From: a virus
IMG/VR virus record: IMGVR_UViG_3300035338_000016
Span: 78,784-127,532 of that record
Length of the DNA stretch: 48,749 nucleotides
Strand: one strand, 5' to 3'
Shown here: in pieces, positions 29,038 through 33,440 of the stretch
How positions within the stretch are numbered: position 1 is the stretch's first letter
Layout of the letters: the number at the start of each line of letters is the position of its first letter
Notes under the pieces: generated by a model
Database searches by the model: none
What the model was told of the DNA's origin: nothing
The model's input: only the letters and a program-made list of their open reading frames with translations
Program-made: the position numbers and the translations under genes

Positions 29038-29774
29038 AAACAACTATGTTTCAAACATACACCTATATGCCCTGTTTATACTTAATATATAGTATTCGTT
29101 ATATATTTTTGTATGAGCTGTCCTTGAAGGTTGGTAGTCAAGGAGTAACAGTTGTGCCATATAAATATAAATTGAAATCTTTCATATTAAATTATATGGT
29201 CAGGTTAAATTGCTGGGAAACTCTCATGAATCTTATAACTATAATACATTGTAGAAATAGTTTCTGAAAAGTAGAAAAAATCATAAGATTCGACATATGG
29301 TGAAATAAAAGCATATTAGCGTGATGAACTAATGTGTCCTAAGTGTCAAGAAGGTTTAATTAAATTCCTTTAAAGGAGTGGTCAGCATCCAGCCACCCTA
29401 CCCTACTTCTGGGTAACGATGTGTGAGCATTGTACTAAAGACGTAATTAGGCTTGTGTCTTCATACTAAGGAACAATCTAATTATGGTACAGTTGGTGGA
29501 GGTTCATCGGCTTTAAGCCTCGGAGATTATTTACGATAATAATAATCTTTTAATATAAAGTCAGGACTGCGCACGAAAAGATTAAATAAAGTGCGTAACG
29601 GTGGTTTAAAGACTACGGTAAAATTAGTACGTAAAACTTTATTTTGTAGATGCTATTATTGCATATATAATAGTTACAAAATGCATGAGTTGAAAAGAAT
29701 CAACGATTATAACATATTTATACATAAACCGACAAGAAATGGCAAAATTGACATATTTAATGGTAAAAAAATCA

Positions 29775-29806
29775 TTACGCAAACGTAACACCTTTTATGC
29801 CATAAT
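29775..29806 (+). promoter_or_regulatory. Putative operator palindrome and extended -10 for the HTH gene
   Basis: TTACG-CAAA-CGTAA at 29775-29788, then TGCCATAAT. Confidence 0.45.
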
Positions 29807-29878
29807 ATACCTGTGGAAACATCATATACCAATCCTTTATTATATGTATACTACAAAATACAATAATTAGGGGATGAA

Positions 29879-30085
29879 ATGAAAAAGACTAACCGATTGC
29901 AGAAAATAATGGGAGATAAAAACTTAAGCGTTGGGCAACTGGCTAGAATGTCGGGTTTAAGTGTTGCGACAATTAGTAGAGTTGAGAGATGTGAAGAAGA
30001 TCCCAAGCAATCAACTATGATTGCAATCAGTAAGGCCTTAAAAATGAAAGTGTGTGATGTTTTTAATTTAGATTGGCGACGATAA
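29879..30085 (+). CDS. Xre/Cro-family helix-turn-helix regulator (intron 2 cargo)
   Basis: LSVGQLARMSGLSVATISRVE...P...TMIAISKAL. Confidence 0.85.
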   Translation: MKKTNRLQKIMGDKNLSVGQLARMSGLSVATISRVERCEEDPKQSTMIAISKALKMKVCDVFNLDWRR

Positions 30086-30112
30086 AAATAAAATTAACAG
30101 GGGGCGTTATGT

Positions 30113-30292
30113 ATGAAGGGAAGAAATGTATTAATTAGGGTGACTGGTTATGTCGAGGATATTTACGGTACACGTATAATTGAAGAGGTAAATAGGGGGA
30201 ATTACAATGAGGCAGTTAGATTTATTATAGACCACCCTCACCAAAATATAACTTGGAAGATTAGACCTGTTATTAATGACATATTAATGTGA
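30113..30292 (+). CDS. 59-aa hypothetical protein (intron 2 cargo; not in ORF track)
   Basis: AGGGGG RBS; MKGRNVLIRVTGYVEDIYG...RPVINDILM*. Confidence 0.55.
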   Translation: MKGRNVLIRVTGYVEDIYGTRIIEEVNRGNYNEAVRFIIDHPHQNITWKIRPVINDILM

Positions 30293-30319
30293 GAAAATTG
30301 GTTTTAAACGGAAAAAGAA

Positions 30320-30351
30320 ATAAGCATCCAACATATCATTTGGGTGCTTAT
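30320..30351 (-). terminator. Terminator hairpin, U-tract on minus strand
   Basis: ATAAGCATCCAA...TTGGGTGCTTAT preceded by GAAAAAGAAA. Confidence 0.6.
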
Positions 30352-30602
30352 CTCCATAAAGAAAAATAAAGAAATTGTTTTAGCAAATGGTCAGTTTGCC
30401 CTTTGAAAGTCCGTTTCATATACGAATCTCATCTACATAACATATTATACCATATTCCACATTAAATGCAAGTGTTTTATACTAACTCAATTACACTTCA
30501 ATGCCTTAACGATACATATGTTTGCAAGAAGAAATGACCAGTTTCTCGCACGTATACTCTTATCGCTAATACAAAACACTATTATGGACTTGCGGTTTTA
30601 TG

Positions 30603-30695
30603 TTATTTTATGTAATTTATGATGGCAAGTGCAGTTTGAATAATTGCACAGACATCGCAAATTACAAGGCTGAAAATTTGTAAATTTGGATTCAT
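30603..30695 (-). CDS. 30-aa hydrophobic peptide, type I toxin-like (not in ORF track)
   Basis: MNPNLQIFSLVICDVCAIIQTALAIINYIK*; GAGGG RBS; TGGTATAAT promoter element at 30762-30770. Confidence 0.6.
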   Translation of the reverse strand: MNPNLQIFSLVICDVCAIIQTALAIINYIK

Positions 30696-30761
30696 ATATG
30701 CCCTCGCTTTCCGTACCAGCTTGCAAGTTTCATATATGAGGTTAGTCACACATGCAAGTAA

Positions 30762-30806
30762 ATTATACCATATTCTTACACAATTTTACACAAGGAACAT
30801 ATGTTT
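30762..30806 (-). promoter_or_regulatory. Extended -10 promoter with adjacent SOS-box-like site
   Basis: TGGTATAAT on minus strand; GAAC-ATAT-GTTT at 30795-30806 resembles Gram-positive LexA GAAC-N4-GTTC. Confidence 0.45.
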
Positions 30807-30946
30807 ATTTTCGACAATATTATAAATTTTATAATTTTACTGTCGATATTTGTAATAAATTATAATTTAAAAGAGTTGTTACATTATATTAAGAATTGAA
30901 GACACAGTGAGTAAATATTTACGTATTATAGAAGAAAAGACTTAGA

Positions 30947-32650
30947 TTAGTTTTCTAAGTCTTTGTTTGTAGTATAAATATAATTAATTGAGTTTATCAA
31001 TTCATCAAAACCATCTGAATTAACTATTTTAGGAGGGGTTACAGAATAAGCTCTTTTTAATTCTTCAGAAGAAAGATAAAGTATTTTATCACGTTTAGCA
31101 ATACCGCCGGGTGTAAATAATATCCATCTATCTTCAGATGAGACAGCTGACTTGTAGTAGCCTAATAGAATATTTCCATCATATAACTTCGTTAGAGAAA
31201 CTAAGCGAATAGTGTCAAAGACTCCTACACCATACTTAGCACCATCAATCATTGAAATCTCATCTTTTGTAGGATCTTCCATATCAATAATATAAAGCGT
31301 ATTTATTCCAGTAAAATCAGAAATAAATAAAAGATAGCCTTTAGTATACATAATTTTGCCTTTGGTATTAAATAAATTATCATTTTTTTTGTTATTGTAT
31401 TCATCATACTTTTCATTTGATAACTCAAAATACACTGTTTTGTTCTTATTTTTATCTAAAGAATATATAGTGTTTTTATCTGCACAAATGGTAAGTTCAT
31501 CAATCTTTAATATATCATTATTGGCTAAACTAGAATGAAACTGTTGTTGTAATTTTGATATTAACTCATCTTTATCTGAAAAGGTAATTGCGTCTAGATT
31601 GCCAAGTTGATTAAACGCTTCTTCATATTTATTATTCTGTATTAAGTTGTTTATTTTATATGTAGAAAATCCTAAATTGATCAAAAAACCAAAGCAGGTA
31701 AGTGCAACGATAACTCCAGTAAGTTTATAAAGCATTATTCGCTGTCTTCTTTTTTTCTGCAAAACTTTCTTTTTTAGATCTTCTTCTATTTTATTTTGTG
31801 CATCCTTTTCTTCAAGTTCAACTTTTTGTTGTTTCAGAAATTCAGGCAGTGAGTGATTTATAATGTAATCCTCTGCGAATTTTTTCTGCACGATATATTT
31901 TTCTGAGAGACAATTTGAACATATTGTACTTTCTGGACGATTTGACATTCCACACTTACAAACCCAATACTCACTATTTTCACTATAATAATATTCTGCA
32001 TCAGAAGATATAGATTTTGCACATCGCAATGCGTCCTGATTGGTTATTTTTATTTTATATGGTTTAATATAGTTATTGTATATTTTAATTTTTTCTTGGT
32101 TGGTGAACATTACTTGAGTTATTTTAAGTTTCACTTTCCTAATATCATTTGATGGCACTTTTATTTCATTTTCATAAGCACCGCCCTTTTCTAAATTTAA
32201 ATCTTGTAGTGTGACTTCAAAAATTAAATTGCCATTAATATAAATTGGATCACCAAAAGAGTTTTCTCCAGCAATGGATATTTTTAAAGCTGTAACTTCA
32301 CCCTCATTTAAATTCTTAAATTGAATTCTTAAAAATATTTCATTATCTGAATTTTTTAATAGTTGATAACTCTTAATTTCCACCGGCGAATTCAAATCTA
32401 TTTCTTCAATAAGTTCCTCATATATTAAGACTAAGTCGTCAAAGAACTTATTTGATTTTTTATCCTTGGTTGACGAGTTTTCTATTTCAGGTAATGAAAT
32501 TGCATGGAATATTGCTACAATCCACAAAAAAGTACCGTAGATCCACCAGACCAAGAAATTTTTACCCTTTCGCTGTGCGATATTTGCAGGTAAAATTCCT
32601 AAACAACACGCAGCTATAAACATTAGAACATAATATGCTTCCATCTTCAA
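30947..32650 (-). CDS. Membrane protein with N-terminal TM hairpin, RanBP2-like zinc finger, coiled coil, further TM helix and C-terminal domain (intron 2 cargo)
   Basis: LGILPANIAQRKGKNFLVWWIYG; WVCKCG...CSNC; 567-aa antisense ORF with AAGGGGA RBS; hairpin 30936-30964 at its stop. Confidence 0.85.
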   Translation of the reverse strand: MKMEAYYVLMFIAACCLGILPANIAQRKGKNFLVWWIYGTFLWIVAIFHAISLPEIENSSTKDKKSNKFFDDLVLIYEELIEEIDLNSPVEIKSYQLLKNSDNEIFLRIQFKNLNEGEVTALKISIAGENSFGDPIYINGNLIFEVTLQDLNLEKGGAYENEIKVPSNDIRKVKLKITQVMFTNQEKIKIYNNYIKPYKIKITNQDALRCAKSISSDAEYYYSENSEYWVCKCGMSNRPESTICSNCLSEKYIVQKKFAEDYIINHSLPEFLKQQKVELEEKDAQNKIEEDLKKKVLQKKRRQRIMLYKLTGVIVALTCFGFLINLGFSTYKINNLIQNNKYEEAFNQLGNLDAITFSDKDELISKLQQQFHSSLANNDILKIDELTICADKNTIYSLDKNKNKTVYFELSNEKYDEYNNKKNDNLFNTKGKIMYTKGYLLFISDFTGINTLYIIDMEDPTKDEISMIDGAKYGVGVFDTIRLVSLTKLYDGNILLGYYKSAVSSEDRWILFTPGGIAKRDKILYLSSEELKRAYSVTPPKIVNSDGFDELINSINYIYTTNKDLEN

Positions 32651-32905
32651 ATCCCCTTAATATTGTAATCTAAATTTAAATGTTCTATAGACATATCCAG
32701 ACACTATTTATATGAATATTTATTACAAGATTAAAAATATTTTCATTTAATACGTCATATATTCATCATCATACTATCTCCTTTTAATTAACCAATAACC
32801 ACCAATATGAAAAGTATAACAAATGTTCAAAAAATTTACAACCAAATATTAGGATGTGAGGAAGAATTATGCTATAATAAATTTAATAAGAAAGGAGTTG
32901 TTAAT

Positions 32906-33379
32906 ATGGGAGAAAAAGATGGTAAAGTTTGTTTTTATTGTAGTAAATGTGGTCTACAATCGTTTAGAGAAATAGCTTGTAAGGATGATGCTGGAAAATG
33001 TGAGTATTGTCATTCTGACTTAAAAGAATATGATTTAATATACTTTTTAGATAGATATAAAGTAAATGAATTTATCGATCTAAAAGAAGAAGATAAAATA
33101 ACGGTAAGACAAACTATGTATAAAAATTTAATTTTAAATCAACCAGAGTTCGATATGAGTCTATTAAAAAAAAGAGTCAATGAAGATTTTGACGATGATT
33201 TAGAAATCATATACAACAAAAATAATCCACTAATTACAATTGAATGTCCATATTGTCATTCAAATGATACTAAGAAAATTTCAGGTTCAAGTAGAATCTT
33301 ATCCGGTGGGATATTTGGATTTGGCTCAAGTAAAATTGGAAAGCAGTGGCACTGTAATACCTGCAAGAGTGACTTCTAA
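32906..33379 (+). CDS. Double zinc-ribbon protein with Gly-rich hydrophobic insert (intron 2 cargo)
   Basis: CSKC..CEYC and CPYC...GGIFGFG...CNTC; AAGGAG RBS before ATG 32906; TGCTATAAT at 32870-32878. Confidence 0.8.
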   Translation: MGEKDGKVCFYCSKCGLQSFREIACKDDAGKCEYCHSDLKEYDLIYFLDRYKVNEFIDLKEEDKITVRQTMYKNLILNQPEFDMSLLKKRVNEDFDDDLEIIYNKNNPLITIECPYCHSNDTKKISGSSRILSGGIFGFGSSKIGKQWHCNTCKSDF

Positions 33380-33440
33380 TTAATAAGCCAAGTATTATTT
33401 ATTTTTAATAAGGTTCTCATCAAACCTAGCTTATAAATAG

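Follow-up and report, generated by a model that had tools for sequence, protein, structure and literature searches.

The DNA analysed here (the window, 48,749 nt) covers positions 78,784-127,532 of record IMGVR_UViG_3300035338_000016, a provirus of 127.5 kb with an estimated completeness of 73%, and carries an interrupted gene for the phage tape measure protein (TMP). Profile searches placed TMP homology on three consecutive plus-strand frames that follow one another along PHROG 4211, namely exon 1 (25319-26221; phrog_4211 positions 555-702), exon 2 (28273-29037; positions 709-943, with a PhageMin_Tail match) and exon 3 (33441-37730; positions 1137-1681). Exons 1 and 2 are separated by intron 1 (26222-28272, plus strand), which contains a core and open reading frames (ORFs) and has its terminal G at 28272. 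Exon 2 ends with ...KGYG, its last codon being GGT, and exon 3 starts with ATA ACG AGT ATG. Between them lies the subject of this study, an insert of 4,403 nt (29038-33440, plus strand) that we refer to as intron 2, with a predicted ribozyme first, cargo genes behind it and a short 3' module at its end.

Relatives of this region were gathered by protein and pattern searches, which added eleven loci whose TMP gene is interrupted at this position as well. The insertion interrupts the same TMP codon in every relative, and a single copy is present in the 127.5-kb record. The loci fall into three clades: clade 1 (the window, L005, L014 and L015; core identity of 83-87% to the window), clade 2 (L035, L036, L037, L038, L047, L050, L056 and partial copies; ~55-60% to clade 1) and clade 3 (L070, from a Lachnospiraceae genome; ~80% to clade 2). 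One relative is located within an Aminipila genome. Insert lengths range from 1,439 to 6,274 nt among the 12 loci. Within clade 1, similarity to the window extends from exon 2 to ~29636, is then lost, and returns at ~32880 in a zinc-ribbon gene, from where it continues into exon 3. A conserved core and insertion site combined with variable cargo, which an earlier reading of the window made from its sequence alone (hereafter the sequence-only reading) had named as a check, were thereby found among the relatives. Searches with blastn against the INPHARED phages gave no match for exon 2 plus core or for exon 3, and no exon 3 homologues were found by protein search in the clade 2 records, where they are too divergent.

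Deletion of 29038-33440 restores one TMP frame (...GAMGAKGYG|ITSMLSS). The in-frame joint KGYG|ITSMLSS had been put forward in the sequence-only reading, and we confirmed both its coordinates and its frame. The junction peptide of the spliced TMP, as predicted from the sequence, is GAMGAKGYGITSMLSSLK, with GYGITSMLSSLK as its tryptic form. Without splicing, read-through from exon 2 proceeds 15 codons into the insert and then meets a stop. These codons (29038-29082) show an in-frame 15-nt indel among clade 1 members and a change of the stop from TAA to TGA in L014; they may encode a conserved short tail on the unspliced product, or merely form the loop hairpin of P1.

All 12 loci for which both insert ends are available share the same arrangement: the 5' exon ends with GGU, the insert ends with a G (the omega G, at 33440 on the plus strand in the window, marking the 3' splice site), and the exon continues in frame with AUA or, once, AUG. 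In clades 2 and 3, the terminal G of the insert is the last base of an AUG or ACG triplet, and exon 3 then starts with AUAUUC. Since ACG takes the place of AUG before exon 3 in two clade 2 loci, this triplet is not a start codon. Two other assignments for clade 2 were abandoned. Taking the terminal G from AUAG left exon 3 out of frame and was overturned by the 1.4-kb clade 3 locus; an independent start at the conserved AUG, or a leaderless mRNA generated by 3' cleavage, was dropped after the same locus was found.

These ends bear on a different explanation of the locus, in which exons 2 and 3 give separate TMP polypeptides, the first stopping 15 codons into the insert and the second restarting at ATG 33450, while the folded RNA would be either the remnant of a dead intron or an element with a role in regulation or processing. 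The ATG at the fourth codon of exon 3 in clade 1 would suit such a restart. However, it has no Shine-Dalgarno (SD) sequence, unlike nearly all real genes of the window: its anti-SD duplex is worth -0.4 kcal/mol, compared to -10 to -16 kcal/mol for TMP exon 1 and most window genes, and the genes of this phage carry strong SDs. Further, the exon starts with AUA UUC in clades 2 and 3 and has no start codon nearby. An exon 3 with a conserved start of its own, which the sequence-only reading had listed as evidence against itself, was consequently not seen.

A HMMER search with the first 400 residues of exon 3 against 1.84 billion representatives identified 188 relatives. For many of them, the called protein starts near the joint, as separate polypeptides would, while others match deep inside long proteins. 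Six (P0015, P0020, P0058, P0050, P0115 and P0128) align in one piece to a virtual exon 2+3, residues 93-1436 of P0015 for example to query residues 2-1274. At the position of the joint, these unbroken TMPs read KGVGVKD, KDYGITKVW or KDYGLTKVW, compared to KGYG|ITSML in the spliced protein. The predicted joint rebuilds a motif, K[GD]YG[IL]T, that is contiguous in uninterrupted TMPs. A joint placed inside such a motif argues against two separate polypeptides, an explanation that we regard as unlikely.

The first part of the insert (29038-29617, plus strand) is a structured RNA with group I elements in canonical order, in agreement with the sequence-only reading, which had described a group I core in the first ~570 nt and a P7 with a bulged C and a G-C site. 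The order of the elements is P1, P2, P2.1, P2.2, P3, J3/4-P4 (AAAUUGCUGGG), P5, P4', P6, J6/7-P7, P3', P8, J8/7-P7', P9 and P9.1. The 5' exon strand of P1 (29030-29037) pairs in two parts, GGU 29035-29037 with GCC 29069-29071 and GUUAC 29030-29034 with GUAAC 29145-29149; the guide sequence itself (29066-29071) consists of UAU 29066-29068 followed by this GCC. Hairpins P2 (29074-29118), P2.1 (29121-29144) and P2.2 (29156-29200) of the hand model lead to P3 (29202-29204 with 29518-29520, AGG/CCU), P4 (29211-29216 with 29382-29387, P4' being UCAGCA) and P5 (29220-29224 with 29375-29379), which bears a long extension. P6 (29389-29396 with 29496-29502) closes three inner hairpins, one of them with a GUGA loop. 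J6/7 and P7 (29507-29514 with 29557-29563) place the bulged C29508 beside a G-C pair, P8 (29522-29550) is followed by J8/7-P7', and P9 (29569-29596) and P9.1 (29600-29617) complete the hand model, all on the plus strand.

We drew this structure by hand and transferred it within clades via MAFFT alignment, giving 14 cores from three clades. Across 96 pairs and 14 sequences, 97.1% of the cells hold standard pairs. Changes on both sides occur in 39 pairs, or in 37 when at least 90% of a pair's cells must stay paired. In controls with the 3' partners slid by 1-3 positions, 32-45% of the cells were standard pairs and 1-7 pairs were compensatory. RNAalifold, run on the four clade 1 cores alone, returned 11 compensatory pairs. 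Compensatory changes are numerous in P2, P2.1, P2.2, P5, P6, P8 and P9, and P7 shows one compensatory and one G.U-to-A-U change between clades. P3 and P4 never vary and are uninformative on covariation.

P7 crosses P3, so that the pseudoknot topology is kept. Its strands are U[C]GGCUUUA with UAAAGUCA in clade 1 (GGCUUUA with UAAAGUC) and G[A]GACUAU with AUAGUCC in clade 2, the bulged base being given in brackets; the pair flanking the bulge changes from U-A in clade 1 to G-C in clade 2. The guanosine-binding site, a G-C pair of P7 beside the bulged base, is present in clades 1 and 2. Compared by eye with the Rfam consensus, the P element and J3/4 read AAAUUGCUGGGAA (consensus AAUUGCGGgAAA) and the Q element reads GGUCAGCA. 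The R element is AGGUUCAUCGGCUUUAA in clade 1 and GUCCAGAGACUAUAA in clade 2 (consensus GUUCAaAGACUA), and the S element is AAUAUAAAGUC in clade 1 and AAUAGAUAGUCC in clade 2 (consensus AAGAUAUAGUC), with both clade 2 versions near the consensus. Judged by eye, the P, Q, R and S elements thus stand in canonical order and form P4, P6 and P7. A first candidate for P7, formed by GUACUA (29431) and UAGUAC (29625), finds no counterpart in clade 2 and was therefore discarded, and an R-like GGUUUAAAGACUACGG was rejected as the R element because it is hairpin P9.1.

Pairing of the exons with the guide follows the same pattern of conservation. GGU/GCC, with U.G at the 5' splice site, is invariant in the 14 cores, and the extension helix between exon and guide covaries (GUUAC/GUAAC, GUCAC/GUGAU in L015, and UGUA/UACA in clades 2 and 3). 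For P10, AUA or AUG of exon 3 stands opposite the guide UAU with 3-4 pairs, too short to weigh much alone. Of the three guide pairings in the sequence-only reading, GGT/GCC and ATA/TAT are thereby present and conserved in all relatives, whereas AACATAC/GTATGTT (29054-29060 with 33448-33454) is present in clade 1 but has no equivalent in the other clades. We also considered AUAUCAU/AUGAUAU of clade 2 as its counterpart; because this pairing extends across the splice site and is one pair shorter at the two ACG loci, we do not count it as support.

As a separate observation on P2, the segment of L070 that corresponds to P2-P2.2 of clades 2 and 3 (13020-13110, minus strand) gave a weak match to the Rfam LOOT RNA (23.8 bits, E = 0.065). 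The match is driven by CCUAAAC...GCAUGG in P2, which resembles the 11-nt tetraloop-receptor motif. The GUGA and GUAA loops of the core could dock at this receptor-like motif.

Beyond the cargo, a hairpin lies 13-34 nt upstream of the 3' splice site in all introns of clades 1 and 2. In the window, it is AGGUU[CUCAUCA]AACCU (loop in brackets; 33411-33427, plus strand), 13 nt before the splice site. The stem covaries within clade 1 (AGGUU/AACCU, AGAC/GUCU, AGGCU/AGCCU and AGACU/AGUCU), and the loop is conserved, as CUCAUCA in clade 1 and as NNUCAAACA, with fully covarying stems, in clade 2. Part of the loop (UCAUCA, 33417-33422) is exactly complementary to UGAUGA at 29322-29327, which is the loop of the P5-extension hairpin in the alifold model. 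We estimate the chance of such a 6-nt loop match at a few per cent, and the pairing is invariant within clade 1. We propose on this basis that the terminal loop pairs with the loop of the P5 extension; in clade 2, it could pair with UGUUUG immediately 5' of the guide sequence. A relic RNA, as assumed for separate TMP polypeptides, would not retain 37-39 compensatory pairs over 14 sequences together with the U.G, the terminal G, a covarying exon-guide helix and, past the cargo, a hairpin that covaries as well. Loss of the covarying pairs, which the sequence-only reading would have taken as a refutation, is accordingly not what we observe.

Between core and 3' module lies the variable cargo region (29618-33410, both strands). 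On the plus strand, a gene for a 68-aa Cro/C1-type helix-turn-helix (HTH) protein (29879-30085; HTH_26/HTH_3, PADLOC 'control protein') is accompanied by a 59-aa ORF (30113-30292) to which no function was assigned. The minus strand encodes a 567-aa membrane protein with an internal zinc ribbon (30947-32650), whose only match is phrog_8436 (unknown function) over residues 10-67; no Pfam or PADLOC family and no usable Atlas relative was found for it. The last gene, on the plus strand (32906-33379), encodes a zinc-ribbon protein ('fam0') that is recurrent and always adjoins the 3' end of the intron. Of the 12 introns, nine contain its gene, plus-strand in clade 1, minus-strand in clades 2 and 3; in the clade 3 copy it is the sole gene. 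The protein is one of many uncharacterised proteins from phages and Bacillota, and searches of Pfam, PDB and Atlas returned no nuclease match or other known family.

All-against-all BLASTP sorted the cargo of 12 introns into 72 protein families, nearly all of them singletons. Only two recur widely, the zinc-ribbon protein and a GmrSD_N/NsnA-like family (five loci, all in clade 2). Elsewhere, the relatives carry DUF3825, PemK/MazF-domain, Bro-N/ANT antirepressor, DUF2513 and Cu_amine_oxidN1-domain proteins. Cargo size ranges from one gene, in the 1.4-kb intron of the Lachnospiraceae genome, up to ~5.5 kb. The one-gene copy indicates that core and 3' module are the constant unit and that the remainder is load. 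The HTH gene and its 59-aa companion lie inside the insert in the window and in L015, and upstream of TMP exon 1 in L005 and L014, so the pair acts as an ordinary movable accessory cassette; its copies are ~75% identical between phages (window 29698-30288, L005 6502-7090, L014 1820-2385).

Pfam, PHROGs and PADLOC detected no homing endonuclease (LAGLIDADG, GIY-YIG, HNH, His-Cys or PD-(D/E)xK) in the window cargo, consistent with the absence of a nuclease motif noted in the sequence-only reading, and no defence gene is recognised there. No transposase was found in the window cargo, nor in a scan of 14 larger cargo proteins from relatives, and no recurrent palindromic site at cassette joints was seen in the cargo. 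As the sequence-only reading supposed, lysogens may express the cargo for defence, exclusion or addiction.

Such a gene content could also be that of a defective prophage, with an island lodged in a TMP pseudogene or excised from the DNA before lytic growth. The insert does hold typical moron genes, and the provirus record is estimated to be incomplete (73%, see above). Against a defect stand 12 loci from different samples in which both long frames are intact and in phase to the base, and the insert borders coincide with ribozyme elements. Excision at the DNA level would be at odds with the window, where we found neither a recombinase in the cargo nor direct repeats at the insert borders. We consider this explanation very improbable.

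The sequence-only reading counted at least five genes on both strands with their own promoters. Four genes are solid and one or two more are small, but the promoter-like sites in this AT-rich stretch are only ~1.5 times as frequent as in shuffled sequences. Examples are TTGACA-16-AATCAT (29748-29775) and, on the minus strand, TCGACA-16-TATAAT (30846-30819). The latter site (11/12) is the best promoter-like site of the cargo and faces a small minus-strand ORF (30603-30749). Signals of their own in the insert genes would also suit separate TMP polypeptides. On the plus strand of the window cargo, we found a single weak terminator-like hairpin (30936-30964), so a continuous precursor is possible.

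The antisense genes and promoter-like sites between core and 3' module raise the question of whether the exons are joined in trans, with an RNA of exon 2 and core meeting a separate RNA of terminal hairpin and exon 3, or by back-splicing as in the coral ND5-717 intron. To our knowledge, no natural trans-splicing group I intron has been reported from bacteria or phages. The layout would permit it: the entire core lies 5' of the cargo, ~30-90 nt suffice at the 3' end, and the conserved terminal loop has its 6-nt complement in a loop of the core. Additionally, unconventional processing is described for giant organellar group I introns (PMC6545197). However, the 3' module has no evident promoter directly upstream, and the one weak terminator-like hairpin leaves room for a continuous precursor. 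Joining in trans is in our view improbable.

Taken together, we interpret 29038-33440 as a spliced, cargo-bearing group I intron in the TMP gene, and we put the probability of this reading at roughly 0.7. The rival explanations fit the data less well, and the comparisons support, at the level of sequence, the interpretation given in the sequence-only reading (a group I intron with variable accessory cargo in the TMP gene). Several points weigh on the other side. The search with group I models that had been suggested as a check failed for this intron, as Rfam RF00028 gave no match at E up to 10 on either 28980-29900 (921 bases) or 26500-34500, and reached no more than 14.8 bits (E = 0.84) with the clade 3 copy; a core that Rfam does not recognise is also what a relic between two TMP polypeptides might look like. 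Intron 1 matches RF00028 with 40.9 bits (E = 6e-9, core at 26196-26598) in a narrowed search, below the gathering score of 50, which indicates that the model is weak on phage introns with large insertions. P3 as drawn consists of three invariant pairs only, P1 is unusual in that its guide strand is split by two hairpins (P2 and P2.1), and a structural alignment made by hand favours pairing. The 1.7-kb minus-strand gene and the promoter-like sites could hinder a continuous precursor, no cargo-free copy of the intron was found among the loci, and the numerous database relatives of exon 3 that start near the joint fit a two-protein arrangement as well.

We infer catalysis, splicing in vivo and docking of the 3' module from the conserved features described above, and we envisage the following mechanism for the intron. 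The RNA enzyme would be complete in the first 580 nt. The last eight bases of exon 2 would be held by a guide in two parts, GCC and GUAAC, which two inserted hairpins separate. The region past P9.1 would be a long peripheral tail that has taken up accessory genes on either strand, with promoters of their own, presumably exchanged between related phages. The 3' module would close the intron with its conserved-loop hairpin, the terminal G and the exon AUA pairing beside the guide, and it probably docks back on the core, bringing a 3' splice site 3.8 kb away to the active site. With GGU spliced to AUA and intron 1 removed too, a single TMP of ~1,990 residues would result. A wider picture is more tentative, and we hold it at slightly less than even odds: an intron lineage of gut Clostridia phages may serve as a storage bay, in which the ribozyme and a 3' 'address' of 30-90 nt, docked on the core through loop-loop pairing, are all that stays constant and enclose swappable defence, toxin, repressor and unknown genes in any number, at no cost to the essential TMP gene; this cargo would have its own promoters in lysogens and be spliced out of the late mRNA across 4-6 kb, possibly in trans.

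The remaining interruptions mark the TMP family as a hotspot for introns: a single gene can have as many as four breaks, and the TMP genes of relatives contain up to three additional introns. Intron 1 is identified as group I by its RF00028 match and shows the core-first layout too, which speaks for the group I reading of intron 2; behind its core lie a 72-aa ORF and a 450-aa homing endonuclease that matches phrog_559 and has treble-clef zinc fingers. The core of intron 1 shares 79-83% identity with those of introns at another TMP site (after exon 2 residue 148 in L005 and 139 in L015), which indicates that this intron moved between sites. Further breaks of 0.3-2.2 kb were observed in the exon 2 region of L009, L010, L012 and L013, after residues 46, 62, ~86 and ~145. 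When the starts of the window were scored for SD sequences, the first ATG of TMP exon 2 had none. Two other plus-strand ORFs of the window, 1341-4016 (891 aa) and 37766-39022 (418 aa), likewise have a first start codon without an SD; their starts may be wrongly set, or they may be additional split genes. The window also contains a tRNA gene at 5138-5209 (71.5 bits), apparently tRNA-Asn with anticodon GUU.

Group I introns of phages are known to be small and selfish, carrying a single homing endonuclease gene at most. If our interpretation of intron 2 is true, it would represent a hotspot of a new kind, where a multi-gene set of phage accessory genes, defence-like ones included, sits within an essential structural gene and is swapped between phages; such a hotspot is invisible to gene callers that report two TMP genes flanking an island. 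It would mean that a bacterial group I ribozyme reaches a 3' splice site several kilobases away, and would offer an example from nature on which long-range RNA docking can be tested. Many of the split TMP genes annotated in gut phage catalogues would be single genes. Full-text literature searches found no paper on multi-gene cargo in a phage group I intron.

The core-first layout of introns 1 and 2 is shared with the nrdD (sunY)-type introns of phage T4, in which the core comes first and an ORF lies in a 3' peripheral loop. Introns of the T4 type carry one homing endonuclease gene on the same strand, unlike the multi-gene cargo described here. Alike in setting are TMP-IVS1, IVS2 and IVS3a/b, group I introns in TMP genes of B. 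cereus-group prophages (Tourasse and Kolsto 2008, PMC2504315), which share with intron 2 the TMP gene, residence in Firmicutes prophages, in-frame insertion, an early stop codon and the occurrence of several introns per gene. They are small and have one homing endonuclease gene, its remains or none, whereas intron 2 holds a multi-gene island. ND5-717, a giant group I intron of hexacoral mitochondria with back-splicing (PMC6545197), likewise surrounds many unrelated genes, over many kilobases. It is organellar and encloses essential genes in a fixed order, in contrast to the variable accessory load of the phage intron. A parallel in construction is found in the IStrons CdISt1, BcISt1 and their relatives, elements of ~2 kb from Firmicutes with a class IA2 ribozyme containing P7.1/P7.2 (Tourasse, Stabell and Kolsto 2014, PMC4227781). 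There, too, a 5' group I ribozyme is followed by foreign genes behind the core, and both are spliced out together in a Firmicutes host, which makes the insertion harmless to the host gene, as we propose for TMP. IStrons carry an IS200/IS605 or IS607 transposon (tnpA/tnpB) and occur in several copies at short target motifs, while intron 2 has no transposase and is present as one copy in the record, at a fixed site in one gene, and our hand model has no P7.1/P7.2. Unlike IStrons, intron 2 and its relatives differ from one another in their load, which consists of unrelated genes on both strands, about ten at most.

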